Origin: Candidatus Helarchaeota archaeon
GTDB taxonomy: Archaea; Asgardarchaeota; Lokiarchaeia; Helarchaeales; RDOG01
Assembly (NCBI GenBank): GCA_019058315.1
Contig: JAHPZH010000001.1
Span: 1,265,432 to 1,329,431 of the forward strand
Direction: 5' to 3'
Length of the DNA: 64,000 bases
Made by a program: the position numbers and the translations under genes. The number at the start of each line of letters is the position of its first letter. Position 1 is the first letter of the stretch. Of this stretch, positions 26,123-63,029 are shown one piece after another. The notes beneath the pieces were generated by a model. It was not told where the DNA came from. It saw nothing but the letters and a program-made list of their open reading frames with translations, and made no database searches.

Positions 26123-26671
26123 TTATTTAATGAGCTTTTCTGCAATTTTATAAAAGGCTTTTTCCACTTGTTCACCAGTCTTAGCGGATGTTTCGAAGAA
26201 CGCAATAGATTTTATAATTTTGGACATTTCTTCGCCTTTTTCAGTCGAAACAGGAGCTAGATCATCTTTTATTAAGCTCCTTGATAGCCCTTTCATCTCA
26301 CTTCTTAAGTCTACCTTGTTACCAACAAGAATTAAAGGAACATCCTCAATATCACGTAAATCTTGAACAAAGTCGGGAACTTCCAGGTATGTGCTGGGTT
26401 TAGTGACGTCATAAACTACTAGAGCAGCACTTGAGCCCCTATAATACATCTGTCTTACACGGCCGAACTTTTCCTGACCTGCAACATCCCAACATAACAG
26501 TTGAACATTTTTATTATCCACTTTAAGATCTTTAATTAATATATTCACACCGATTGTTTCTTTATATGATTCAGAGAATGAATTTTCCACATATTTTTTG
26601 ATTAAAGATGTCTTACCTACAGCAGGGGCGCCCACAAGAATTATTTTGAAATTATATGTTTCCTCACTCAT
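26123..26671 (-). CDS. Rab-like small GTPase
   Basis: GAPAVGKT, ETIGV, WDVAGQE, NKVD, ETSAKTG; no C-terminal Cys prenylation motif. Confidence 0.93.
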   Translation of the reverse strand: MSEETYNFKIILVGAPAVGKTSLIKKYVENSFSESYKETIGVNILIKDLKVDNKNVQLLCWDVAGQEKFGRVRQMYYRGSSAALVVYDVTKPSTYLEVPDFVQDLRDIEDVPLILVGNKVDLRSEMKGLSRSLIKDDLAPVSTEKGEEMSKIIKSIAFFETSAKTGEQVEKAFYKIAEKLIK

Positions 26672-29387: not shown

Positions 29388-32300
29388 ATGGTCGATTTAT
29401 TAAATAATGAGCTTTCAGATCAGATTAATAATTTAAGCCACAAAGCCGAAGAGGAGGAATTAAAATACAATTGGCTTAAAGAAATTGAAATTTTAAAAAA
29501 AGCAGAAAAAATAAGTTCAGAGGAAAATTTCAAGTTAAAAAATGGAGAAATTAATTTTAAATTGGGCGAAATTTATTTAATGGCTGCAAATTTTGGAAAA
29601 ACTGAAGAAAATGTAATAATAAACTTTCAATTATCTAAGAATCATTTTCTAAAGAGTTTGGAGATATTTAAAGACCTTAATATTGAAGAAAAAATATATG
29701 CTACATTAGGTTTCATTGATTATCTAGATTACATATTAGAAACTGAAGCAATTGAAGAAAATATATTAGATAGGGCAAAAAATGAATTCAAAAAAGCGAA
29801 ATTAATTAATTTTAATAAAGGGGATTTAATTGAATCTTTAAAATCGGCAATTTTTGAAAGTAGATTCATAAATCTAATTATGTGTGAAAAACTTATTTGC
29901 ATAGACCCAAATATAGATTTCATCGAATTAGCTTCAGATTATGAAAATCTGGTTGCAAAAATTTGGGTAGATATTAAAAATCAACAACAAGATTTACCCG
30001 AATTTTATTACTATTTCTTTTTGAAAAATATCGTCCATTTTGTAACTTTAATTTTTTATTTCTTACCAGTTAAAGTATCAGTTAAAAGACAGCTTCTAAT
30101 CAATAATTTGAATATTATTTCGGAATTTATAGATAAAATCGAAAATTCAAAGAAAGAATTAAGTTCATTTTATGCTTATTCAATATGCTCTTCATTTAAC
30201 ATGGTATATTCAATATTTTATGTCGAAAGTCAATTTGAGCAGAAAAAATATTTAAAATCTGCACAAAAATGGTTACGAAAAGCAGAAATTTTATTACCTA
30301 ATATCACTGCGAATTCAGCATTGAGAACATTCTATTTCACACGATTTACAGTGTCTATTTTTTTAATTAGACTAGGTTTTTTTGCTAGAGATTTTAAACA
30401 TGTAATGGAAGATTTAAATGAATGTGTTAATCTACTTTTTATTCTTTTTCCCAGAATATTTGGTATAGTTATTACTTTCCTTTCTGTAAATGTTTTTTTA
30501 GCAGCAGCTAATAATCCTTCAGCTCCAGAAGTTCAAAGATTTGATTTTGCTGAAAAAGCTATGGATTTGATTAATTCTAAAATAAATAAATTTTCATTAC
30601 TAAACAATCCAAATTATAAACTCTTTACTATAACAAAAGATGTTCAACTATGTATGGCATTTGGGATATTAGGGGATTTAAGTAAAAATAAAGAAGAGAG
30701 AGATAGATATATTAAGAATTCAAAAACTCTTTTTGATAATTTGTCAAAATTTGATAATCCTTTTATAACAGACAATTATCTTTACTTAACTATAGTTCCT
30801 AGGATTGGAAAAACATTAGCTAGTCATTCAAAAGAGAAAAATAACAAAGTATATTATGACCAAAAGGTAATAGATATATTATTACGTGGTAGAGAAATGG
30901 CAATGGCTTATTTCGATGTCGAGAACCAATTTTTAATTGGAGAAACATATTTTGAAATGGCAACACTAACCAATGATGATAAAATACTAAAAAAAGCTTA
31001 TTCATCATATATGAATACCATTAAATTCTGCAAAGATAAAGGGTATTTTAATTTAGTGGGAACTGCATATATTAATCTTGCCCAAATTGAAGATAGATTA
31101 GAAAATTATTTATCTGCATCAGATAATTATAAAAAAGCCATAGATTCATTCGATCAGGCAATTATGACTCTTACATACACAAAATTGAGTAAAAAGATTG
31201 AGAAGCTAAAAAAATATGTAGAAGCCTGGAGTATAATTGAAATAGCTAAATCATACCATGTAAAAGAGGAACATCATGAAGCACAATTAAATTATGAGCA
31301 AGCTAGCAGAATATTAAATGATTTACGTGATTATAAATTCGAATCACCTTTTTATTCTGCATGGGGTGTGCTAGAAAAAGCAGAAGATTTAAGTAAAATA
31401 AATAAACATCAAGAAGCTGCAGCTACATATTTAGTATCAAAAAATAAATTCCACGATGCTTTAGAAACCCTCAATTCTTACTTGAAAAAAAGAAAATCTC
31501 TTGAGGATATAGATCGAATTTCCAAGTTAACTCAAGTTGCAATGATACGTGAAACATATTGCGACGCTAGATACGAGATTGAAACCGCAAGAATAGAAAG
31601 TAGAAAGGGAAATCATTTAATCGCAGCTGAACTTTATAATAAAGCAAGTGTCGCTTTTGAAAATATATGTCAAAAATTTAAAATTCGACATGAAAGGGAT
31701 GAGTTATCAGCGATTTACTATCTCTGTAAGGCTTGGGAGAAGATGGAACAAGCAGAAGGAGAACAAAAACCAAATCTTTATGATGTGGCCTCACAACTCT
31801 TTGAAAAGGCGAGTAAAATATTTCCGGAAAGTCGTATGAAAAAATTATCTATAGGGAATTCACTTTTTTGTTCCGCTCTTGAACAAGGGAGTTACTTTGA
31901 TAAAACCACTGAATTGGATGAAAAGATTAAACATTATAAAAAAATAAAGATGTATTTACGAGAATCGTCAAAAAACTATCAATTGGGTGGATTCAAACAG
32001 GATGCACAATGGGCTTTAGCAACTTCTACCTTTTTTGACGGTATATGGCATTTAATTCAATCAGATAATGAGATGAATTTCTCTAAAAGGAATGAATTTT
32101 TGAATATAGCAATAAATTATCTAAAGAATGCTTTACAAATCTTTGAAAAAGCGGGTTATGAACAAAAAAGGGATGAAATTCTAAATTATTTAGAAATGAT
32201 TAAAGACGAAAAAGAAATTCTTGCTTCTGCACTTAATATTATAGAAAAACCTGAAATTTCGAAAAGCACCGTTGGAATTTCAGCACCATCGTGTCCCATT

Positions 32301-32756
32301 GAAATAAGTTCATCAGTAAATATAGAAGAAATGCAAGAAACGGATATGAAAACAGAATCTGAATTAAATTGGGCGAAAAGAATTCATCATATTTATTTTC
32401 TTTTACCAAATGGTGTCTGTATTTATGACCAATCCTTTAAAAAAGAAAAAGAGATTGAACCACATTTAGTTACTGGATCTTTAGCTGGTATTTCATCTTT
32501 AATTCAAGAGTTAACACAAAATAAAACCAAAATAAAAATCGTTGAACAAGAAGAAATGACAATCCTCCTCGAGCATGGAGAAAATTTGAGTGTTGCTTTA
32601 ATAACTGAAGAAAATCTAATCACCTTACAAAATAAATTAACACAATTAATTAATGATGTAGAAGATTTCTATCAAGAAGAATTGGTTGCATTTTCAGGAG
32701 ATATAAGCGTTTTTTCAAAAATTGGGAAATTTATTCAAAAGATATTTGAAAGCTAA
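29388..32756 (+). CDS. Large TPR-like solenoid protein with C-terminal longin/roadblock-like domain, copy 1
   Basis: Helical repeats (LAQIEDRLENYLSASDNYKKA); last ~125 aa show the beta-beta-alpha-beta-beta-beta-alpha-alpha pattern (IYFLLPNGVCIY...LVTGSLAGISSLIQE). Confidence 0.8.
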   Translation: MVDLLNNELSDQINNLSHKAEEEELKYNWLKEIEILKKAEKISSEENFKLKNGEINFKLGEIYLMAANFGKTEENVIINFQLSKNHFLKSLEIFKDLNIEEKIYATLGFIDYLDYILETEAIEENILDRAKNEFKKAKLINFNKGDLIESLKSAIFESRFINLIMCEKLICIDPNIDFIELASDYENLVAKIWVDIKNQQQDLPEFYYYFFLKNIVHFVTLIFYFLPVKVSVKRQLLINNLNIISEFIDKIENSKKELSSFYAYSICSSFNMVYSIFYVESQFEQKKYLKSAQKWLRKAEILLPNITANSALRTFYFTRFTVSIFLIRLGFFARDFKHVMEDLNECVNLLFILFPRIFGIVITFLSVNVFLAAANNPSAPEVQRFDFAEKAMDLINSKINKFSLLNNPNYKLFTITKDVQLCMAFGILGDLSKNKEERDRYIKNSKTLFDNLSKFDNPFITDNYLYLTIVPRIGKTLASHSKEKNNKVYYDQKVIDILLRGREMAMAYFDVENQFLIGETYFEMATLTNDDKILKKAYSSYMNTIKFCKDKGYFNLVGTAYINLAQIEDRLENYLSASDNYKKAIDSFDQAIMTLTYTKLSKKIEKLKKYVEAWSIIEIAKSYHVKEEHHEAQLNYEQASRILNDLRDYKFESPFYSAWGVLEKAEDLSKINKHQEAAATYLVSKNKFHDALETLNSYLKKRKSLEDIDRISKLTQVAMIRETYCDARYEIETARIESRKGNHLIAAELYNKASVAFENICQKFKIRHERDELSAIYYLCKAWEKMEQAEGEQKPNLYDVASQLFEKASKIFPESRMKKLSIGNSLFCSALEQGSYFDKTTELDEKIKHYKKIKMYLRESSKNYQLGGFKQDAQWALATSTFFDGIWHLIQSDNEMNFSKRNEFLNIAINYLKNALQIFEKAGYEQKRDEILNYLEMIKDEKEILASALNIIEKPEISKSTVGISAPSCPIEISSSVNIEEMQETDMKTESELNWAKRIHHIYFLLPNGVCIYDQSFKKEKEIEPHLVTGSLAGISSLIQELTQNKTKIKIVEQEEMTILLEHGENLSVALITEENLITLQNKLTQLINDVEDFYQEELVAFSGDISVFSKIGKFIQKIFES

Positions 32757-42458: not shown

Positions 42459-45233
42459 TTGGAAGAGAATGAGTCACATATTGGAGATATAAAGCCTATC
42501 TTTTTAAAATGTGAGTATTTAATCAATCCATTAGGTATAGATATTGTTGATCCGCGTTTGAGTTGGGTATTAGAATCCGATAAACGTAATAAGAAACAAA
42601 CCGCATATCATATTTTAGTGGCGAGTAATGAGGAAATTCTAAATGAAGACAGGGGAGACTTGTGGGATAGCGGTAAAGTAATAACTGATGAATCTACCCA
42701 TATAATTTATCAGGGGAAAGAACTAAAATCACAAATATTTTGTTATTGGAAAGTTCGTGTTTGGGATGGTAATGATAAACCTTCTGATTGGAGCAAGAAT
42801 GCTAAATGGAGTATGGGTTTATTAAAGGATGATGATTGGAAAGCTAAATGGATAGGAACTTCGTCTAAAAGTATATTTTGGATTAATAAAGTCTTACCAA
42901 AAAAAGATAATCCTTGTCCATTATTACGTAAATCATTTCAATTCGCGAATAAAGCTAAACGTGCCATTGTTTATGTTACTGCTTTGGGTGAGTATGAATT
43001 ATATCTTAATGGAAAACGTGTTAGTGATCATATTTTAGCTCCAGAATGGACAGATTATGATAAAAGAGTACAATATCAAACTTATGACGTTACCGATCTG
43101 CTTGTTGAGGGAGAGAATGTAATTGGAGCTATATTAGCAGATGGATGGTATATTGGAAACCTAGGACCAGGTATGCCACCATACCTCCATCATTTTTACG
43201 GAGAAAACAGACGCTTATTATTACAAATGGAAATAGAGCAATTTGATGGAACTATAAAAGAAATTGTTAGTGATTCAGATTGGAAAATTCTTGAAGATGG
43301 ACCTATTGAAGTAGCAGATCATTTCACAGGGGAGACTTATAACGTTCAAAAAGAAATCGTAAATTGGGATAAATCCGGCTTTGATGATTCAGAGTGGTCC
43401 CATGTAACTATTGATTCTACAATAGATAATAAAATTGTTGCACAGATGAATGAGCCAATTCGAATTGTAAAAGAAATTAAACCTATTGAGGTTACAGAAC
43501 CAAATCCTGGAGAATTTGTTTTTAATTTAGGTCAAAATATTGCTGGTTGGTGTAGAATCTCGCTTGACAAATCCATATGTGACGCTAATGCTATAATAAC
43601 GCTACGTCATGGGGAAATGCTTAATCCAGATGGAACTCTTTATACAAAAAATTTAAGAAATGCAAAGGCGACTGATACATACATACTTAAAGGGATAGAA
43701 AAACGAGAGTATCAACCTCATTTTACTTATCATGGCTTTCAATATGTTGAAGTGAAAGGGTTAAAACCAGGTATTAAGCCAAATCTCGATATGATAACTG
43801 GTTGTGTAGTTGCATCAGATGCACGATTAGTAGGTGGATTTGAAAGTTCTGATCCCACGGTAAATAAGCTCTGGAACAATATATTATGGACACAACGAGA
43901 TAATATGATAAGTGTGCCTACTGATTGTCACCAACGTAATGAGCGAATGGGTTGGATGGGTGATGCACTAGTTTTTTGTCAAATGTCGATTTTTAATATG
44001 GATATGGCTGCCTTTTACACAAAATGGATTCAAGATATAAGAGATGCCCAATCCGATGAGGGAAGATATACAGATATGTCTCCTACTCCTTATAGAATAA
44101 AAGGCCTTTTTAAACTGGTTTTTCTAGGTGCTCCAGCGTGGGCTGATTGTGGTATTCATCTCCCATGGGACGTATATTTGAATTATGGTGATAAAAGATT
44201 AATTGAACAACATTTCGATTCAGCAAAAAAATATATCGATTATGTACATTCTAAAAATCAAAATTTAATTTGGATAAGGAGAAGAGGAAATAATTACGGG
44301 GATTGGCTTAATGGTAATGAAATCAAATCAGAAGATTATCCAAAAAAAGGTGGAGAAGTTCCCAAAGAAGTTCTTTCAACAGCCTTTTTCGCTCACTCTA
44401 CAGAAATCCTTTCTAAGATGGCTGAAATAATTGGTTTAAAAGATAAATTTGAATATTATGACAATTTAGCAAGACAAATAAGAGAAAAATTCACTGAACG
44501 GTTTGTTAAAAATGATGGTAAAATCAAAGGTGATACACAAGCTGGTTATGCTATTGCTCTACACTTCAATTTATTACCCGAAGAATTACGCCCTAAAGCT
44601 GTTAAACACATGTTAAATGCAATAGAAAGATATGATGGACGTATTTCGACAGGATTCCTTTGCACATTACCTATGATGTTAGAATTAACTCGTTGGGGCC
44701 ATAATGATACCGCATATCAATTACTCTTGAGTCGAAAATTCCCATCTTGGTTTTATATGATTGATCAAGGGGCAACTACCATGTGGGAAAGGTGGGACGG
44801 ATATGTAAAGGGAAGAGGCTTTCAAAATAAATCAATGAATTCTTTTTGTCATTATGCATTTGGTTCTGTAGGTGAATGGATTATTAAAGTTATTCTAGGT
44901 ATTGATTTGGACGAAAATCAGCCCGGATATAAACATATAATTGTTAGACCAAGACCTAATGGGGCTATAACATGGGCAAAAGGATACTATGATTCAATTC
45001 GAGGTAAAATAGACGTTGATTGGAGTCTTCAAGGGAAAAAATTTAATCTCGAAATAAAAATTCCCCCAAATACTACCGCAACAGTTTATTTACCTGCAAG
45101 TAATTTAGAAAATATTACAGAAAATGATAAATCAATTCATGAATCTGATGATATAGAATTAAAAAAGTATGAAGCTAATTTGGCTATTTTAAAAATTAAT
45201 TCTGGTAAATACTCTTTTATATCTTCCATGTAA
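42459..45233 (+). CDS. Alpha-L-rhamnosidase, GH78
   Basis: CEYLINPLGID..PRLSW, DLWDSGKV, FTYHGFQYVE, PTDCHQRNERMGWMGDA, GATTMWERWD; no signal peptide. Confidence 0.93.
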   Translation: MEENESHIGDIKPIFLKCEYLINPLGIDIVDPRLSWVLESDKRNKKQTAYHILVASNEEILNEDRGDLWDSGKVITDESTHIIYQGKELKSQIFCYWKVRVWDGNDKPSDWSKNAKWSMGLLKDDDWKAKWIGTSSKSIFWINKVLPKKDNPCPLLRKSFQFANKAKRAIVYVTALGEYELYLNGKRVSDHILAPEWTDYDKRVQYQTYDVTDLLVEGENVIGAILADGWYIGNLGPGMPPYLHHFYGENRRLLLQMEIEQFDGTIKEIVSDSDWKILEDGPIEVADHFTGETYNVQKEIVNWDKSGFDDSEWSHVTIDSTIDNKIVAQMNEPIRIVKEIKPIEVTEPNPGEFVFNLGQNIAGWCRISLDKSICDANAIITLRHGEMLNPDGTLYTKNLRNAKATDTYILKGIEKREYQPHFTYHGFQYVEVKGLKPGIKPNLDMITGCVVASDARLVGGFESSDPTVNKLWNNILWTQRDNMISVPTDCHQRNERMGWMGDALVFCQMSIFNMDMAAFYTKWIQDIRDAQSDEGRYTDMSPTPYRIKGLFKLVFLGAPAWADCGIHLPWDVYLNYGDKRLIEQHFDSAKKYIDYVHSKNQNLIWIRRRGNNYGDWLNGNEIKSEDYPKKGGEVPKEVLSTAFFAHSTEILSKMAEIIGLKDKFEYYDNLARQIREKFTERFVKNDGKIKGDTQAGYAIALHFNLLPEELRPKAVKHMLNAIERYDGRISTGFLCTLPMMLELTRWGHNDTAYQLLLSRKFPSWFYMIDQGATTMWERWDGYVKGRGFQNKSMNSFCHYAFGSVGEWIIKVILGIDLDENQPGYKHIIVRPRPNGAITWAKGYYDSIRGKIDVDWSLQGKKFNLEIKIPPNTTATVYLPASNLENITENDKSIHESDDIELKKYEANLAILKINSGKYSFISSM

Positions 45234-45246
45234 AAAATATCGTAAT

Positions 45247-46401
45247 GTGGTAGAAGTGAACTCGAAAGACCGTGTTTTAACTACTTTTAATCATGAAGAG
45301 CCAGATCGAGTTCCCATTTTCGAACTTTCAATTGAGAGTCCAGATGTTGCGAATGGTTATGGAATAGATAGGATGTCTTCAATTTATAGCTTAGATGTAG
45401 AAAATGCGATCACACTATACCAAAGAATTGGATTAGATCTTTCCATAGTTCCTGTTTGTGGCTTCCCTATTGGAAAAGGGACGGGTTTTGGAAAGAAAAA
45501 GCCAGGTTTAAAAACCCCACGCTCAACAAATATGGTAGAGGAGTTTGGTAGAGTGATAACATACTCTATTAAAGATCTACCGACTTATGTAGGTGGTTGG
45601 TTTGATTCAGAAACTGGCGATTTAGATGAAATAATAGAAAAATATGAAAAATTTTCCCCACTAGACCCAAACGCAAAGTTAAGGTATATCCCTTTTGAAA
45701 GAGCAGTAAAAACTGCAGGAACATCAGAAACAAAAAGCCCATACATTATACCTATGATGCAAGGTTTTTTTGAGAATTCATGGCAGCCTTTTGGGTTTGA
45801 AAATTATACCCGATTATTATTTGAGCGTTCCGATTTTGTTGAAACAGTTTTGAACAATATTGATATTTTTTTAACAGAATTAATAGAAAATCTTGCTGAC
45901 CGTTATTCAATTGAACTAATATGTTACGGAGATGATCTAGGTTATAAAACGGGACCTTTAATAAATCCTAGAAATTTTCAAAAACTTATTTATCCTAAAA
46001 TGAAAAAGTTTGTAGAGTTTTGTCATAAAAAAAATATGAAAGTACTTTATCATTCTTGTGGAAATTTAAATAAAATATTAGATAAAGTGATAGAAACAGG
46101 AATTGATGGATTACATCCTCTTGAACCTAGTGCGGCGATGGATATATTCGCAACACATCGGAGTTATGGTGATAGATTAACATTGATAGGAAATGTTGAT
46201 ACAATTGATTTGTTAGCAAAGGGAACAACCGCACAAGTTAGTGAATACGTGAAAAAAGAAATTAAATATATCGCCCCTAATGGAGGATTAATCATTTCAT
46301 CATCACATTCAATTAATCCACAAATTTCATTTGAAAATTATAATGCTATGATAGAAACAACTAAAAAATATGGTAAGTATCCAATTTCGATAAATGATTA
46401 A
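45247..46401 (+). CDS. MtaA/CmuA/UroD-family protein (putative corrinoid methyltransferase)
   Basis: HEEPDRVP, GDDLG, YHSCG, LIGNVD, GGLIISSSHSI. Confidence 0.85.
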   Translation: MVEVNSKDRVLTTFNHEEPDRVPIFELSIESPDVANGYGIDRMSSIYSLDVENAITLYQRIGLDLSIVPVCGFPIGKGTGFGKKKPGLKTPRSTNMVEEFGRVITYSIKDLPTYVGGWFDSETGDLDEIIEKYEKFSPLDPNAKLRYIPFERAVKTAGTSETKSPYIIPMMQGFFENSWQPFGFENYTRLLFERSDFVETVLNNIDIFLTELIENLADRYSIELICYGDDLGYKTGPLINPRNFQKLIYPKMKKFVEFCHKKNMKVLYHSCGNLNKILDKVIETGIDGLHPLEPSAAMDIFATHRSYGDRLTLIGNVDTIDLLAKGTTAQVSEYVKKEIKYIAPNGGLIISSSHSINPQISFENYNAMIETTKKYGKYPISIND

Positions 46402-46414
46402 TATTGGTGATTTA

Positions 46415-47062
46415 ATGGAAGATTTAAAAAAATTAGAAGATTCAATTACAAATTTAGATAAAAAAGGAGCAGTAGATACAACAAATAAAATTATTTCTGA
46501 AAAAAAAGTTACTGTAAAACAGGGGATAGATGCGGTAACTAAGGCATTACAAAATATCGGTGAACTTTATGAAAAGGAGGAATATTATCTTGCAGAACTC
46601 GTTTATGCTGGTGACATATCGAAGACTATTTTAGGTCTTTTAGAACCGCATTTACCAAAAACTGCTGATAAAGATTTTGCCAAAAGGATTGTCATAGGGA
46701 CTGTAAAAGGAGACATGCATGATTTAGGAAAGAATATTGTGCAAGCATTTGGACGCGGAGCAGGTTATGAAATAATTGATTTAGGAAATGATGTTTCAGT
46801 TGAAGCTTTTATAAAAGAACTTATGGAAAATAATATCAAAATTCTAGGTATATCATGCCTTTTAACTGCCTGTGATTCCGAGTTACCAAAAATCCTAACT
46901 GCTTTAAAAGATAAAGGGTTAATTGACGTAAAAGTTGTTATTGGTGGAGCTGCAATGACCGAAAAATTAGCGGCAGACTTAGAAAATAAATTCAATATAA
47001 CCGTTAAATTTGCTCCTGATGCAATTAATGGAATTAAAATTTTTAACGAGTTGATAGATTAA
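46415..47062 (+). CDS. Methyltransferase corrinoid (B12-binding) protein
   Basis: Cap domain plus GTVKGDMHDLGKNIV (DxHxxG), IDLG, ISCLL, IGGAA; ATG 46415 with GGTGA RBS. Confidence 0.92.
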   Translation: MEDLKKLEDSITNLDKKGAVDTTNKIISEKKVTVKQGIDAVTKALQNIGELYEKEEYYLAELVYAGDISKTILGLLEPHLPKTADKDFAKRIVIGTVKGDMHDLGKNIVQAFGRGAGYEIIDLGNDVSVEAFIKELMENNIKILGISCLLTACDSELPKILTALKDKGLIDVKVVIGGAAMTEKLAADLENKFNITVKFAPDAINGIKIFNELID

Positions 47063-47083
47063 AATACACAAAAGAGGATATTC

Positions 47084-48262
47084 ATGAACTCGAAAGAAAG
47101 AATATTAGCAACAATTAATCATGAAGAACCGGACAGAGTTCCAATTTTCCTTTCGGGAATAGATAGTCGAGATGTGTATGAAGGTTATTTGAAATCTAAA
47201 GGAAAAAAACCAGATAAGAGCGGAAAAATTAGAATAAGGAGTATTCTACCTGGGGGTCGGGGTTGGCTTAAATTTATGGTTGATCTCGGCATTGATTTAC
47301 AGCATGCGCCCGTATGTCTTCTACCTATAGGCAAGGGCACCGGTTTTGGCGTGAAAAAACCAGGACTAAAAACTCCGCCAGAATCTACTTGGGCAGATGA
47401 ATATGGACGTATTTTTCATAGTTATAAGGCGGAGGATTCAGATTTACGTCTATGGAATTACGTAGGCGGTATCTTTGATTCTGAGACTGGTGATTTGGAA
47501 GAGATCATGAACAGATATGAAAAATGGGATCCGTTAAATGCAGATATTAAATGGAGATATTTTATTTATGAGGAGGCCCTTAAAACGGTAAAAAATGAAG
47601 GGCCTTTTGTAGTCCCGGGCATAGGTGGTTTCTTTGAGGTAACTTGGGAATCGTTCGGTTTCGAAAATTATACGAAACTCTTATTTGAACATCCTGACTT
47701 TATTGAGCAGGTCACAAAAAATAATGAAGAATTTTCTCGGCGATTAACTGAGATTTTGATAGAGAAATACAATATTGAGATGTTATGGGTCTGGGATGAT
47801 TTGGGATATAAAACAGGAACATTCTTGAATCCAAGACAATACATGAAATTAATATATCCACGGATGAAAAATCTCGTCGCATATTGTCATAAAAATGGTG
47901 TAAAGGTAGCATTACACTCTTGTGGTAATCTAAATAAAATACTAGATAAAGTGATTGATACTGGAATTGATGCTTTAAATCCAATTGAACCTTCAGCTCA
48001 TATGGACATTTTTCAACTAAAAAAAGATTATGGAAATAAATTGACATTAATAGGAAATGTAGATACTACTGATTTATTAGCAAGAGGAACTCCGGAACAA
48101 GTTGAAACCCACGTAAAGAAATTAATCAAATTCTGTGCACCTGGTGGAGGTTATATAGTGTCATCTGGGCACTCAATCAATCCTAGTATAACCTATGAAA
48201 ATTATAATTCCATGATTCAAACGACATTGAAATATGGAAAATATCCTATTGAACTACAATGA
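47084..48262 (+). CDS. MtaA/CmuA/UroD-family protein, paralog of 45247-46401
   Basis: HEEPDRVP, WDDLG, LHSCG, SSGHSI; shares PIGKGTGFGxKKPGLKTP with its paralog. Confidence 0.85.
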   Translation: MNSKERILATINHEEPDRVPIFLSGIDSRDVYEGYLKSKGKKPDKSGKIRIRSILPGGRGWLKFMVDLGIDLQHAPVCLLPIGKGTGFGVKKPGLKTPPESTWADEYGRIFHSYKAEDSDLRLWNYVGGIFDSETGDLEEIMNRYEKWDPLNADIKWRYFIYEEALKTVKNEGPFVVPGIGGFFEVTWESFGFENYTKLLFEHPDFIEQVTKNNEEFSRRLTEILIEKYNIEMLWVWDDLGYKTGTFLNPRQYMKLIYPRMKNLVAYCHKNGVKVALHSCGNLNKILDKVIDTGIDALNPIEPSAHMDIFQLKKDYGNKLTLIGNVDTTDLLARGTPEQVETHVKKLIKFCAPGGGYIVSSGHSINPSITYENYNSMIQTTLKYGKYPIELQ

Positions 48263-49620: not shown

Positions 49621-51231
49621 ATGAAAAATAAGAAGTTATTTCTATTTTTTATTATGAATTTTATCTTAATTTCAACAATAATTATCAATAATTATTCTGC
49701 TACTTCAAATTCGTTGATATCTTGGACGAAAAACCATGAAATATGGATATCTATAAAAGAATCTTTTAAAAAATGGAATGATAATGGCATTGCGATTTGT
49801 ACATATAGTGAAGATCAAGATTATCCCCAAATTTGTAGCGATGGTGATGGCGGTGCAATTATTGTGTGGGAAGATTCTAGGAGCGGCGGTCCTAGTTATA
49901 TTTATGCACAGAATATAAATTCTGTTGGAGTCGTAGAATGGGCTTTAAATGGTACTAGAATATGTACAAATGACAGTAACCAAGATTATCCACAAATTTG
50001 TAGTGATGGTAATGGAGGTGCAATTATTACTTGGAGAGATGATAGAGTCCCAGGAAATGATATTTATGCACAGAGAATAAATTCTAGTGGAGAACTAGAA
50101 TGGAACACGAACGGTGTAGTAATTTGCAATGACTCTTCCAATCAAGATTATCCTAAGATTTGTAGTGATTTAGTTGGAGGTGCAATCATTACATGGATGG
50201 ATTATAGAAGTGGAACAAGCTATGATATCTATGCACAAAGAATAAATTCTGACGGAATCGTTCAGTGGACACCAAACGGCGAGGAGGTCTGCACAGCAAA
50301 TCGTACTCAACAACAACTTCAAATTTGTAGTGACAATGCCAGCGGAGCGATTATTACTTGGGAAGATACTAGAAATTGGCCAACTAATCGTGATATTTAC
50401 GCCCAAAGAATAAATAATAGCGGAGGGATTGAATGGCAAAACAACGGCACTGTGGTTAGTTCTCTAATCAGAAACCGATCTAATCCTCAAATTTGTAGCA
50501 GCGGTGAAGGAGGTGCGATTATCACGTGGGAAGAAACAATTACCGTGACAGAAATTGATATTTATGCACAAAAATTAAATTCTAGTGGAGATCTCGAATG
50601 GGGATTTGGTGCACACGGAGTTTGTGGAGCACCTTATCAGCAATATAATCCTCAACCTTGTAGTGACGGTGCTGGTGGCGTAATCATCACATGGAGAGAT
50701 TATAGAAATGGAACTCATTATGATATCTATGCACAAAGAATAAAATCAGGTGGAGGCTGTCAATGGACGACGAATGGCGTACCAATATGTACAGAGAGTT
50801 ATGATCAAATTTATCCTCAGATTTGTAGTGATGGTGTTGGTGGTGCAATAATCACGTGGGAAGATATTAGAAATTTTCCTGGACCTGCAGATATCTATGC
50901 ACAAATAATAAATTCAAACGGAATTTTGAAATTGACGACGAATGGTATGACAATATGTATAGAGAGTAATCAACAAGGCATTCCACAAATATGTAGTGAT
51001 AATGCTGGTGGTGCGTTCATAACTTGGGTTGATTTTAGAGGCGGGAGTAATTTTGACATATATGCACAGAGACTTATGAAATCTACTGCAATTAACTTAT
51101 TAGATTCGATCATACTCTTGTTAGCGAACCAAACAACGCCCATTAATTCGTTATTATTACCACTGATAATAGGGATAGCCGCAGTAATAGTGATTATAAT
51201 AATATTGATAATAATGAAAAAAAGAAAATAA
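49621..51231 (+). CDS. Membrane-anchored surface protein with 8 tandem ~55-aa repeats (predicted beta-propeller)
   Basis: N-terminal signal/anchor; 8x QxYPQICSDGxGGAIITWxDxR..DIYAQRIN; C-terminal TM plus MKKRK. Confidence 0.8.
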   Translation: MKNKKLFLFFIMNFILISTIIINNYSATSNSLISWTKNHEIWISIKESFKKWNDNGIAICTYSEDQDYPQICSDGDGGAIIVWEDSRSGGPSYIYAQNINSVGVVEWALNGTRICTNDSNQDYPQICSDGNGGAIITWRDDRVPGNDIYAQRINSSGELEWNTNGVVICNDSSNQDYPKICSDLVGGAIITWMDYRSGTSYDIYAQRINSDGIVQWTPNGEEVCTANRTQQQLQICSDNASGAIITWEDTRNWPTNRDIYAQRINNSGGIEWQNNGTVVSSLIRNRSNPQICSSGEGGAIITWEETITVTEIDIYAQKLNSSGDLEWGFGAHGVCGAPYQQYNPQPCSDGAGGVIITWRDYRNGTHYDIYAQRIKSGGGCQWTTNGVPICTESYDQIYPQICSDGVGGAIITWEDIRNFPGPADIYAQIINSNGILKLTTNGMTICIESNQQGIPQICSDNAGGAFITWVDFRGGSNFDIYAQRLMKSTAINLLDSIILLLANQTTPINSLLLPLIIGIAAVIVIIIILIIMKKRK

Positions 51232-51269
51232 AGAAATTCTTTATTCTTTTTTTAACAGTTGGATAGATA

Positions 51270-51433
51270 AAAAATCTTAAAATTTTATTAAAATATGGTG
51301 AATATGTCACTATAGCACTTATTGTAGAAGAAAATTTTAAAATCCTCTATTCAATATTATTCTACCAAAATGGAAAGGTGATATAGAGGTGTTTTTATAA
51401 GTAAAAATAATGGTTGAAAAAATTTTTACATAA
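51270..51433 (+). pseudogene. Decayed longin-domain 3' fragment paralogous to the downstream gene
   Basis: KNLKILLKYGEYVTIALIVEENFKIL, then deletion/frameshift, then ILPKWKGDIEVFL*VKIMVEKIFT*; compare KDVQILFKYGKFITAALIAVEDLEIL...ILPKWKGDLEIFSPVKVMVERIFT*. Confidence 0.8.
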
Positions 51434-51484: not shown

Positions 51485-52570
51485 ATGGTATTTGAATTTT
51501 TACCTAATGTAATTATTATATTAAACATAGGAATTAATTTTATCGAAGTTGCATTAGAATTACAGATATTTATACTTTTTATATCAAATGCCAGAAAAGG
51601 TCTGAGTGAGAAAGGTATTCATGGACCATTGAATATAAGATTCGGTTTATCATCTCTATTTCTTACTTTAGGTCGTATTTCTTTTATTATATGGGATTAT
51701 ATTATTCAAAATTCTTTAGCTCGAATAACTGCTTGGATTTTTACATTTCTTGGTATAATTTTTATAGGGTTTGTTTTCTATCGTGTTTTTGACAAATATT
51801 TACCAAAACTAAAATTATACTTAACATTATCTGTGTTAATAGGAATAGCAATATTTTTCATTTATTTTATTTTTATTTTCTTATTAAAAATGACTTTACT
51901 CATCTATTTTATATTTGCAGTATTAACCGGTCTGCTTGTTTTTCCTTTAATCTATGCTTTTACTAAATGTTTTATAGAAATTGGGAGTGAATTCAGAAAA
52001 TATATTGTTGCTATAATGATTGGATTGTTTGCTTCAGTTACAGGTTATTTGATCGCTTCAATGCATCCGTTTATCAGCGTTGAACATAGTATGATTGTAA
52101 AATTCATAGGGCATATGATATTTGTATCAGGAATTATTTTTTTTGCTGTAGGTTTTTGGAGTCTTCCTTCACTTAAAGAATTGGAATGGAGAGACAAAAT
52201 AAAACATTTATATATAATACTTGAGGGGGGAGTAAATATTTATGACCATTCTTTTATAATCGAAGATACTTTTCAAAGTGATCTGATGGCTGGAGGTATT
52301 TCAGGAATAACTACCTTAATGCAAGAATTAACAAAAAGTAAGGAAAGAGCAGAAGTTATAAGACAGAAAGATGTTCAAATTTTATTTAAATATGGAAAAT
52401 TTATCACTGCAGCATTAATTGCTGTTGAAGATTTGGAAATTCTTCACTTTAAATTAAAAAAGTTAGTAGATGAATTTGAAATATTATTTCAATATATTCT
52501 ACCCAAATGGAAAGGAGATTTAGAAATATTTTCACCAGTCAAAGTAATGGTTGAGAGGATTTTTACATAA
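51485..52570 (+). CDS. 7TM membrane protein fused to a C-terminal longin/roadblock-like domain
   Basis: Seven hydrophobic segments, then ELEWRDKIKHLYIILEGGVNIY...LMAGGISGITTLMQE, matching the C-termini of the TPR-like proteins. Confidence 0.8.
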   Translation: MVFEFLPNVIIILNIGINFIEVALELQIFILFISNARKGLSEKGIHGPLNIRFGLSSLFLTLGRISFIIWDYIIQNSLARITAWIFTFLGIIFIGFVFYRVFDKYLPKLKLYLTLSVLIGIAIFFIYFIFIFLLKMTLLIYFIFAVLTGLLVFPLIYAFTKCFIEIGSEFRKYIVAIMIGLFASVTGYLIASMHPFISVEHSMIVKFIGHMIFVSGIIFFAVGFWSLPSLKELEWRDKIKHLYIILEGGVNIYDHSFIIEDTFQSDLMAGGISGITTLMQELTKSKERAEVIRQKDVQILFKYGKFITAALIAVEDLEILHFKLKKLVDEFEILFQYILPKWKGDLEIFSPVKVMVERIFT

Positions 52571-52709: not shown

Positions 52710-53486
52710 TCAATCAGGCCATCCAATTCTGCGTTTAAACCAATCTGGCATAGAAAAGCAGATATAATAAATAATTGCAGATACAATATATAAGACTTGG
52801 ATGATTCTAAACTCAGCTGTAACTGATGTAATAAGAACAGGTATAGCGAAAAATAAGATGCCTGTCCCTAACCATATGGATAGGTTACTTTGAGGTCTAT
52901 TTTCTTCCCGAATTTTTACAGCAAAATAATAGAAAACCCCTATTGGAATCACCGCAGTTGTACCAACACTGAGGAAACGAACTACTTGAATTTCAAAAGA
53001 ATAAACTGTTACAAAATTAAGGACATTAGAATACGGAGGGCCTTGAATAACTGCCCAGGATTGAGTTCCTATATAAATTGCTGATATAACTAACAAAATA
53101 GCTAATACAATTTTATATCGTTTTGGAAAAGTCATACGAATTGCAAATAAATTAACACATAAGTATGTAAATTGAGCTGGAAATAGAGTAATTATTGTTA
53201 AAAGTTCGCCTAGTCCAGGTAAACCAAAGGTTGAATAACATAAAGATTGTAAGGTCAAAAGAACATTAGCTGGGATTAGCGAGATCATCCCTAGTAAAAA
53301 TAATAACGTCTCAACAGATTCTCTTTTTTTGTAATTTTTATATAATCTATAAATTATGCCAGCTACTAAAATCCCAGCTGTTAGACTTATTGAGAGCATA
53401 AAAAGTTCAAACAATTGACTAGAAAGAGAGCTCCCAACAATCATATTCGACATATACTGAAGAGAGTATTCCCAAGAAACAGCCAT
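52710..53486 (-). CDS. 7TM membrane protein, paralog 2
   Basis: Shares GLPGLGELLTI, QGPP and MPDWFKRRIGW with 28377-29153. Confidence 0.8.
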   Translation of the reverse strand: MAVSWEYSLQYMSNMIVGSSLSSQLFELFMLSISLTAGILVAGIIYRLYKNYKKRESVETLLFLLGMISLIPANVLLTLQSLCYSTFGLPGLGELLTIITLFPAQFTYLCVNLFAIRMTFPKRYKIVLAILLVISAIYIGTQSWAVIQGPPYSNVLNFVTVYSFEIQVVRFLSVGTTAVIPIGVFYYFAVKIREENRPQSNLSIWLGTGILFFAIPVLITSVTAEFRIIQVLYIVSAIIYYICFSMPDWFKRRIGWPD

Positions 53487-61571: not shown

Positions 61572-62024
61572 TTAAAATTTCGACATCCAATTACTTATAT
61601 TTTTATCTATTTCCTCTTCAAAAATATCTTTTAAAACTTCATGAAATCCTTGAAATTCTTGAGTATTATACGGTAATTTTTTAACTTGATGTTCGACCAA
61701 ATAGCTACCGTATTTTATGATGAATTGTTTTTGAATTTCTTCGATTTTCTTTTTTAAATATTTTTCTTTAATTTTACCCGAGCTTCTTAAAACAATAAAA
61801 ATATGGTATTCTTCTAGACTAGAAATTAATAATTTTGAACCTCCTAACTCGATTCTTTTGATTTTCTCTCCTTTGCTAATTGTTTCTAAAAAGGTCTGAA
61901 TACTGCTTAAGAACCCTGAGAATAGAGTCTCATCTACTGTTGTTTTCCCCTCTCTTCCTATAGAATGGTTGAATAAGCAGACTCCCGAGTCCTCGATTAT
62001 GTATACCTCGTCAATTTTTTCCAA
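61572..62024 (-). CDS. Stand-alone longin/roadblock-like domain protein
   Basis: VYIIEDSGVCLF...DETLFSGFLSSIQTFLETI...KIKRIELGGSKLLI pattern. Confidence 0.75.
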   Translation of the reverse strand: MEKIDEVYIIEDSGVCLFNHSIGREGKTTVDETLFSGFLSSIQTFLETISKGEKIKRIELGGSKLLISSLEEYHIFIVLRSSGKIKEKYLKKKIEEIQKQFIIKYGSYLVEHQVKKLPYNTQEFQGFHEVLKDIFEEEIDKNISNWMSKF

Positions 62025-62231: not shown

Positions 62232-63029
62232 GTGGGATATAAAATGTCGAGATTAACTTATGGATTTGAATTTACATGGAATAAATTAATGAATATATCT
62301 ATCTTAAATAATCCTATGGAAGTAGTTGGACTAGTATTTGTTCTGATATTGGAAGTTATAATGGTTTTATTAGTCTATCGAGCTTTTACGAGTTATAGGG
62401 AAACTAAAATGTTTGGAACTCTTTTATGGTTTTTAGCTTTTGTTACAATATTTGTCGGTGTTATTTTCTTAATTCTTGAAAAAGTTGCTTACTCGACTTT
62501 AGGTAATATGGGACTGGGAGACCTTATGACAATACTAGCATTGACCCTATCTGGTGCAGGCATTGTTTGCTTTGATATATTTTCTTTTCATACTGCATAT
62601 CCTGACTATGAAAAGGTACTATCAGTATTAGTAGCAGCACTAGCAGCAACATATATTGGTGCATTATCTTTTGCTATAGCGACTGGAAGTCCAAATTCAG
62701 AAATTATAAATAATGAACCAGTATATAGTCTAGGGTTTGATATAATTGCATACATTACACTTATTCCTCTATTGACGATAGCACCTCTGGTTTTTTTCTA
62801 TTTTTATTGGAGAAATCGTGATAAAGAAAGAGGTCAAGCACTAAGAGGTCTATGGATCGGTATCGCGTTCTCCTTTTTTGCAGTCGGGTATATTTCTGAA
62901 GCTGCCCCTTACTTTCCTGCGGGACTAGCAGCACCTCTTCGCATTTTACATCTTATTGCAGCGACAATACTATATATCTGCTTAACTATGCCAGATTGGT
63001 TCAAAAACAGAATCGGATGGATTGATTAA
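62232..63029 (+). CDS. 7TM membrane protein, paralog 3
   Basis: Seven hydrophobic segments; YSTLGNMGLGDL; ends YICLTMPDWFKNRIGWID; start may be ATG 62244. Confidence 0.8.
   Translation: MGYKMSRLTYGFEFTWNKLMNISILNNPMEVVGLVFVLILEVIMVLLVYRAFTSYRETKMFGTLLWFLAFVTIFVGVIFLILEKVAYSTLGNMGLGDLMTILALTLSGAGIVCFDIFSFHTAYPDYEKVLSVLVAALAATYIGALSFAIATGSPNSEIINNEPVYSLGFDIIAYITLIPLLTIAPLVFFYFYWRNRDKERGQALRGLWIGIAFSFFAVGYISEAAPYFPAGLAAPLRILHLIAATILYICLTMPDWFKNRIGWID

Follow-up and report, generated by a model that had tools for sequence, protein, structure and literature searches.

The window analysed here is a 64,000-nucleotide stretch (G000:C3:1265432-1329431) of the 5.8-Mb, ~30% GC genome of a Candidatus Helarchaeota archaeon, and the gene under study, P0001, lies in it at 51485-52570 (+). 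According to the listing of open reading frames (ORFs) and its translation, P0001 encodes 361 aa, and the protein is predicted to consist of seven transmembrane (TM) helices, hereafter 7TM, followed by a cytoplasmic longin domain. The ORF begins at an ATG, and the same start is found in its orthologues. The nearest named relatives of the window's proteins come from metagenome-assembled genomes (MAGs) labelled Helarchaeota, Promethearchaeota and Hodarchaeota, all Asgard archaea. We recovered six close relatives of P0001, five at 57-72% identity (four full length, one truncated) and one at 31%. Both halves of the protein are kept across all six, and the full-length orthologues sit in Helarchaeota and Promethearchaeota MAGs. 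Searching 1.84 billion cluster representatives with a P0001 profile returned 1518 matches at E<=1e-3, and the majority of the best matches were collinear from end to end.

We modelled P0001 with AlphaFold2 on a 67-sequence alignment (pLDDT 90.6, pTM 0.83). The model contains a seven-helix TM domain at residues 9-226 (51509-52162, +), with helices at residues 9-38, 48-73, 77-105, 107-132, 138-166, 168-192 and 199-226, and a hydropathy reading concurs with these seven. Lys+Arg residues number 3, 4, 3 and at least 4 in the cytoplasmic loops and tail, compared with 0, 1, 1 and 0 in the outer segments. Based on this positive-inside bias, the N-terminus is predicted to lie outside, the C-terminus inside and the longin domain in the cytoplasm. 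Past the last TM helix, the junction LPSLKELEWRDKI runs into a 9-residue linker, or "entry", helix at residues 230-238 (ELEWRDKIK; 52172-52198, +), whose near-invariant Trp235 is conserved in at least 90% of the 67 family members. The C-terminal domain follows at residues 239-361 (52199-52567, +) in the order strand-strand-helix-strand-strand-strand-helix-helix, with strands at 239-246 and 251-256, a helix at 265-283, strands at 291-294, 297-303 and 307-313, and helices at 318-334 and 346-360. As expected for the longin order, strand 1 is preceded by the 9-residue linker helix only and not by a long N-terminal helix. An earlier sequence-only reading of the gene had proposed seven TM helices leading into a longin-like domain, with the N-terminus out and the C-terminus in; the model and the hydropathy bear out the helix count and the domain, and the positive-inside rule agrees with the topology.

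The top Foldseek rows for the C-terminal domain were all longin or roadblock chains. The domain superposes on solved longin domains across its whole length. Roadblock structures cover its core alone (~100 residues, 235-337), and compared with the MglB/Roadblock-LC7 platforms, the modelled domain has two extra C-terminal helices of the longin type. For the whole model, a Foldseek search of the PDB gave no row at E<=1e-3, and the structural comparison was then made with VIA-align. At the sequence level, a 32-sequence profile of the module searched against PDB sequences placed TRAPPC1 (E 0.0075), Trs23 (E 0.037) and MON1 (E 0.04) in its top four rows, at marginal E-values. Sub-threshold Pfam matches among the 67 relatives were to Sybindin (3 of 67, best E 1.3e-3) and Fuz_longin_1 (1 of 67); P0001 itself had no match at E<=1 to either Sybindin (PF04099) or Fuz_longin_1 (PF19036). 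A cNMP_binding assignment for P0001 (E 0.0014-0.028, below the cut-off) was rejected, since the region folds as a longin domain. Fold and secondary-structure order are common to the P0001 module, the TRAPP longins (TRAPPC1/Bet5 and TRAPPC4/Trs23) and the first longin of Mon1, Fuzzy and HPS1. These known proteins are soluble parts of multi-subunit Rab guanine nucleotide exchange factors (GEFs), whereas the P0001-type module is covalently joined to a 7TM bundle or a solenoid giant via the Trp-bearing linker helix.

Structural matches of the membrane half barely exceed the chance level for helical bundles, and we therefore claim for it a 7TM arrangement rather than membership of a family. The AlphaFold2 models of P0001 and of P0003, a stand-alone 7TM protein encoded next to it, match the same 7TM structures. 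At the fold level, P0001 shares seven helices and a predicted N-out/C-in topology with G protein-coupled receptors (GPCRs) and microbial rhodopsins, and its short cytoplasmic helix after TM7 occupies the position of GPCR helix 8. It differs from GPCRs in that a direct reading of the sequence found neither DRY at the end of TM3 nor NPxxY in TM7, and probably also in working independently of heterotrimeric G proteins. A microbial rhodopsin was considered and dropped, as P0001 lacks the conserved retinal Lys of TM7; its single TM7 lysine, K206, lies near the outer end of the helix, is replaced by Arg in P0012 and is variable in the 67-member alignment. A similar logic, in which a seven-helix module is followed by a cytoplasmic output, characterises the 7TMR-DISM, 7TM-7TMR_HD and HisKA_7TM sensors, which likewise have many paralogues with divergent membrane parts. 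Unlike in those sensors, the output of P0001 is a longin domain and not a kinase, cyclase or HD hydrolase, and the P0001 family, unlike the prokaryotic 7TM sensor families, appears limited to Asgard archaea. P0001 had no Pfam match above cut-off to 7TMR-DISM_7TM or 7TM-7TMR_HD. One of its 67 relatives matched 7TMR-DISM_7TM at E 1.1e-3, and P0002, a second stand-alone 7TM protein of the window, scored E 0.12 and 1.4 against prokaryotic 7TM sensor families, far from their cut-offs.

Searching the genome with an iterated hidden Markov model (HMM) of the longin module revealed 141 ORFs that carry it. These comprise 53 TM fusions, which have a hydrophobic and mostly clearly polytopic N-terminal region and the module at the C-terminus; 13 giants of ~1110-1260 aa; 24 stand-alone modules; 28 proteins with an N-terminal module; and 23 others, in which the module sits at or near the C-terminus of other protein types. 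The TM regions of the 53 fusions fall into 13 sequence clusters, 7 of which are singletons. P0001 is left as a singleton by phmmer, but a profile of its orthologues aligns with the largest cluster at 97.8% (E 7e-13). The same genome encodes about 119 ORFs with a small-GTPase domain, so that both groups are very large expansions. Across a phylum sample, 122 of 151 genomes were matched at E<=1e-20, with full-length matches in many families. Feature and shape searches of the ESM Atlas with the whole architecture returned only clusters of "hypothetical proteins", from Promethearchaeota and Thorarchaeota, and a longin-V4R cluster superposes on the P0001 module with an rmsd of 1.7 A over 122 residues. 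P0001 is an ordinary member of a big, unnamed, Asgard-wide family and not a rare "Rosetta stone" fusion.

The module of P0001 also terminates three giant proteins of the window, each ~1130 aa long, and an entry motif shared with these giants had been noticed from the sequence. Their longin modules were located by HMM at residues 995-1120 of P0004 (gene 29388-32756; module 32370-32753, +), 1000-1135 of P0005 (35345-38758; 38342-38755, +) and 1005-1132 of P0006 (38979-42383; 41991-42380, +), and are 36%, 40% and 43% identical to that of P0001, respectively. With BLASTP, residues 225-361 of P0001 matched the P0004 tail at 36% identity (E 1e-32). Genome-wide, the motif, whose Trp stands three residues before the Lys/Arg and strand 1, occurred in 11 of the 13 giants and 23 of the 53 TM fusions, compared with none of the 24 stand-alone and none of the 28 N-terminal modules. 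We then built a tree of the genome's longin modules of at least 90 residues. One clade of 37 members, with a support of 0.97, united 11 giants, all 19 fusions of the largest TM cluster (cluster 1), P0001 and a few others; branching within it was poorly supported. The entry motif is confined to this clade, and the TM-fusion clusters outside it carry other junctions. This pattern fits a single module that was transferred, linker helix included, from one N-terminal part to another, as had been supposed when the same output was said to serve different inputs. Judged by these sequences, the longin module is a movable output part, one clade of which forms the C-terminus both of the ~1130-aa solenoid giants and of many 7TM proteins. 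As for the giants themselves, P0004-P0006 have weak TPR/MIT Pfam matches only, and several strongly hydrophobic segments around residues 200-380 may be membrane helices. Elsewhere in the genome, a 136-aa stand-alone module (G000:C11:780587-780997, +) groups with the giant tails and has their HHLY..PNGVCIY signature, and it resembles the tail of a giant that has become detached.

In addition to the fusion, the window encodes three stand-alone 7TM proteins that terminate in MPDWFK..IGWxD directly past TM7. P0003 (52710-53486, -) is the convergent neighbour of P0001, 140 bp away. P0002 (28377-29153, -) is 53% identical to it and divergent from the giant gene 29388-32756 across 235 bp, and the third gene (62232-63029, +; family HMM E 4e-84) is divergent from a stand-alone longin gene. 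A 182-aa Ras-family GTPase is encoded at 26123-26671 (-; Pfam Ras E 6e-50), ~1.7 kb from the P0002 gene; no other GTPase gene of the window lies closer to any of the genes discussed here. The MPDWFK family has 28 paralogues of 243-271 aa in this genome, none with the module, and a word-indexed search of 5.8 billion proteins found it in stand-alone form only (180-277 aa). An AlphaFold2 model of P0003 (pLDDT 89.7) has seven TM helices and a short terminal helix (248-254).

The two 7TM types are related only distantly. BLASTP between the TM part of P0001 and P0003 detected no similarity, and neither phmmer nor an iterated HMM, started from the TM part of P0001, retrieved any ORF of the genome other than P0001. 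A 7-sequence orthologue profile reached just 64% against the MPDWFK family, with 37 off-register columns. The 67-sequence fused-7TM profile, aligned with hhalign, reached 97.1% (E 5.8e-11, score 75) over 211 collinear columns at 15% identity, and cluster 1 reached 93.5%; the homology is visible only with this larger profile or via cluster 1. Controls with reversed alignments, in which composition and hydrophobic periodicity are preserved, scored 27-28 (13-17%) compared with 75, and in an earlier profile set the reversed controls scored at most 25 compared with 54-87 for the true alignments. The alignment spans all seven helices and places MPDWFKRRIGWxE on the LPSL--KELEWRD junction. We accordingly take the fused and MPDWFK types to be distant homologues, and as aligned the MPDWFK bundle stops exactly at the linker helix of the fusion, in agreement with the sequence-only reading, which had placed this tail at the point of entry into the longin domain.

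The two parts also occur as neighbouring genes. In the window, the third MPDWFK gene shares a 208-bp divergent spacer with a 150-aa stand-alone longin gene (61572-62024, -; module HMM E 2.8e-25), whose product begins at strand 1 without the entry helix and matches Pfam Sybindin at E 4.1e-5 (24.1 bits, cut-off 25). To survey such pairs, we used this longin to search 40 relatives and inspected the loci obtained. Within the window's own order, an MPDWFK-like 7TM gene and a 137-aa longin gene form a divergent pair at six loci in 5 of 7 genomes. Against the phylum, the MPDWFK-family alignment matched 39 of 151 genomes, generally in a single copy. In a second sample, from other Asgard families (20 loci from 20 genomes, selected by the 7TM match alone), a stand-alone longin gene of 138-151 aa directly adjoined the MPDWFK-like gene at 9 loci. 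Seven of the nine pairs share a strand, the longin gene preceding the 7TM gene and the two overlapping or lying no more than 12 nt apart; the other two pairs are divergent. The nine belong to three families; four loci of a fourth family showed no such pair.

Like the window's copy, the stand-alone longins of these pairs begin at strand 1 without the entry helix, and most end in Ala/Ser-Leu/Phe-Trp. At loci L037-L051 and L076-L091, nearly all longins end in a conserved Trp (..ALW, ..AFW, ..SLW), and their 7TM partners keep an invariant P-x-W in the terminal helix; both may be interface or membrane-anchor residues. At one locus (L090:1324-3288, genome G089), a stand-alone longin gene precedes two tandem MPDWFK-like genes, the junctions being gaps of 7 nt and an overlap, which suggests that one longin serves two membrane partners there. 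In a single case (L093:2531-5629, genome G028), an MPDWFK-like gene is followed by two same-strand genes for ~315-aa proteins with small-GTPase domains, and no longin gene is present.

Complex prediction for one conserved 7TM/longin pair gave an ipSAE of 0.46, compared with 0.01 for the best control; contacts agreed between runs by at least 86%, and partner pLDDT was at least 71. Benchmarking placed 58 of 80 solved complexes at or above the ipSAE mark, along with 2 of 110 mismatched pairs; values at the mark but no higher than 0.60 came from only 7 of the 80 solved complexes and from both mismatches. These counts hold only roughly, since our own alignments were used. With the conserved operon as a prior, the predicted complex lends mild extra support to the split pair. 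Since MPDWFK-like genes adjoin free-standing longin genes in many Asgard genomes, the two parts are to be found either joined in a single chain or encoded by separate genes. The idea of split and fused versions of one architecture is thus supported by the profile homology and by the adjacency, often with overlap in one operon. In this genome, the excess is modest, with 5 of 28 MPDWFK genes adjoining a module gene compared with ~2 expected; within 10 kb there are 21 such neighbours compared with 10 expected, with the tandem arrays not being independent. The closest relatives found of the window's stand-alone longin (L035 and L036) have no 7TM gene within 1.5 kb, so that the pair in the window may be local. 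Finally, the fused family is spread more widely in the phylum than the stand-alone MPDWFK family, which suggests that the stand-alone 7TM forms are derived.

Directly upstream of P0001 lies a frameshifted, stop-containing 3' half of a longin copy (51267-51430, +), in which a 30-aa stretch is 67% identical to the end of the P0001 module and contains a TAA; the strand 4-5 region and the last helices are recovered by combining two reading frames. This relic looks like the remnant of a disrupted duplicate or of a rearrangement. At the orthologue loci L031 and L032, the shared neighbours are a gene for an anSME-like radical SAM/SPASM/SEC-C protein, URO-D-type genes and a sulfatase, with a URO-D gene 10-21 bp after the 7TM-longin gene. 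These two informative loci lack the MPDWFK gene 52710-53486 beside the orthologue. In this genome (48259-57667), that gene and a 536-aa BNR-like repeat surface protein (49621-51231) are inserted flanking the P0001 region. At 57-72% identity, the conservation of neighbours may be plain synteny. Ahead of the radical SAM gene, a co-directional run at 42459-48262 encodes a GH78 rhamnosidase, two URO-D-type proteins and a B12-binding corrinoid protein, and looks like a glycan-demethylation/desulfation locus.

We favour, with a probability of roughly 60%, a reading in which P0001 combines a GPCR- or rhodopsin-shaped bundle with a TRAPP/Mon1/Fuzzy-type longin domain in the cytoplasm, the former sensing and the latter docking a partner. 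The 7TM bundle would respond to a ligand, a lipid or the membrane's own state and pass the signal through the linker helix to the longin domain, which, probably as a dimer, would dock or regulate a cytoplasmic partner at the membrane. To our knowledge, all known longin/roadblock platforms are dimeric. In eukaryotes, longin dimers act in TRAPP, Mon1-Ccz1, CPLANE and related complexes (PMC10933270). Because of these roles, the TRAPP/Mon1-type affinities of the module and the ~120 GTPases of the genome, we tentatively name a small GTPase as the most likely class of partner, a proposal we hold at somewhat less than even odds. A more specific version, namely an Asgard receptor system in which a 7TM bundle controls a fused or operon-encoded longin platform that recruits or switches Ras-superfamily GTPases at the membrane, we consider doubtful at present.

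Several observations weigh against this receptor reading. The small-GTPase gene nearest to P0001 is 24.8 kb away. TM-longin genes lie near GTPase genes in 6 cases compared with 3.7 at random (within 1 kb) and in 12 compared with 6.9 (within 3 kb), and genome-wide, the proximity of TM-longin, giant, stand-alone longin and MPDWFK genes to GTPase genes stays within the random range. The conserved neighbours of the orthologues (anSME-like radical SAM, URO-D-type and sulfatase genes) are uninformative on GTPases. P0001 reaches no Pfam gathering threshold, and the complex prediction is a weak pass. The operon order, longin gene before 7TM gene, is the reverse of that in the fusion, and therefore no simple fission or fusion connects the two forms. 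The "receptor" or "sensory" role of P0001 and any link to GTPases are inferred.

Among the alternatives, the one that survives best, and which we judge unlikely, is that the longin domain is unrelated to GTPases and acts as a dimerisation or adaptor module, clustering 7TM proteins or linking them to a coat, a cytoskeletal element or a scaffold. SNARE longin domains and AP sigma subunits indeed bind non-GTPase partners. The distance of P0001 from any GTPase gene and the weak genome-wide enrichment speak for such an adaptor, as does the occurrence of the same module at the end of solenoid (TPR-like) giants, which are typical scaffolds. Against it, the closest solved relatives by sequence are the Rab-GEF longins TRAPPC1, Trs23 and MON1, the near-matches in Pfam are Sybindin and Fuz_longin_1, the genome holds its ~120 small GTPases, and the MPDWFK-like gene of L093 adjoins two GTPase genes.

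Alternatively, the seven-helix domain could be no sensor at all and serve as a transporter or channel, such as a pump, or as a membrane enzyme, such as a PAQR-like hydrolase, which the longin domain only regulates or localises. In favour of this reading, the orthologues stay inside a run of glycan, sulfatase and corrinoid-methyltransferase genes. We nevertheless regard it as improbable: no conserved retinal Lys is present in TM7, no catalytic or transport family was matched in Pfam, and a set of 53 copies in 13 clusters, 7 of which are singletons, looks more like an array of diversified receptors than a single enzyme or carrier. Lastly, the view that the likeness of the MPDWFK and fused 7TM parts is convergence of composition and helix spacing, and that the adjacencies follow from longin-gene density with no split/fused relation, draws on the blindness of BLASTP and phmmer, the 64% and 37 off-register columns of the small profile, the 15% identity and the modest excess in this genome (5 of 28 compared with ~2), and is very improbable given the low scores of both sets of reversed controls, an alignment collinear through seven helices and ending on the junction, and an adjacency (9 of 20, 7 operonic) far over our rough, uncalculated estimate of a few percent for those genomes.

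Asgard longin and roadblock proteins have been described before, including fusions to GTPase, TRAPPC3/V4R and two-component domains and an extensive shuffling of longin modules, in the available text of two studies (Tran et al. 2024, PMC10933270; Liu et al., 10.1101/2020.10.19.343400). Those proteins, as portrayed there, belong to the same superfamily expansion as the P0001 family. Neither a 7TM-longin fusion nor a pair of 7TM and longin genes appears in the accessible parts of the two papers, the supplement of the second aside, and our full-text literature searches found no description of a 7TM-longin protein. One 2026 preprint names "7TM proteins" among earlier ESP families but gives no detail. 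Tran et al. 2024 (PMC10933270) also stress that operons do not reveal Asgard GTPase-regulator pairs.

Small GTPases number about a hundred in Asgard genomes, and longin/roadblock proteins are equally numerous. A phylum-wide 7TM-longin family, together with its two-gene form, offers a testable entry into how these GTPases and longins are connected to a signal or to the membrane. At about 250 aa plus 140 aa, the split pairs are small and well suited to co-expression and structural work. The fused and split forms bear on the pre-eukaryotic origin of membrane-linked GTPase regulation. If the 7TM bundles do control longin platforms that recruit or switch GTPases, the family would represent a prokaryotic receptor-to-small-GTPase pathway, with dozens of paralogues per genome, built of parts later used in the eukaryotic TRAPP, Mon1-Ccz1 and CPLANE complexes.

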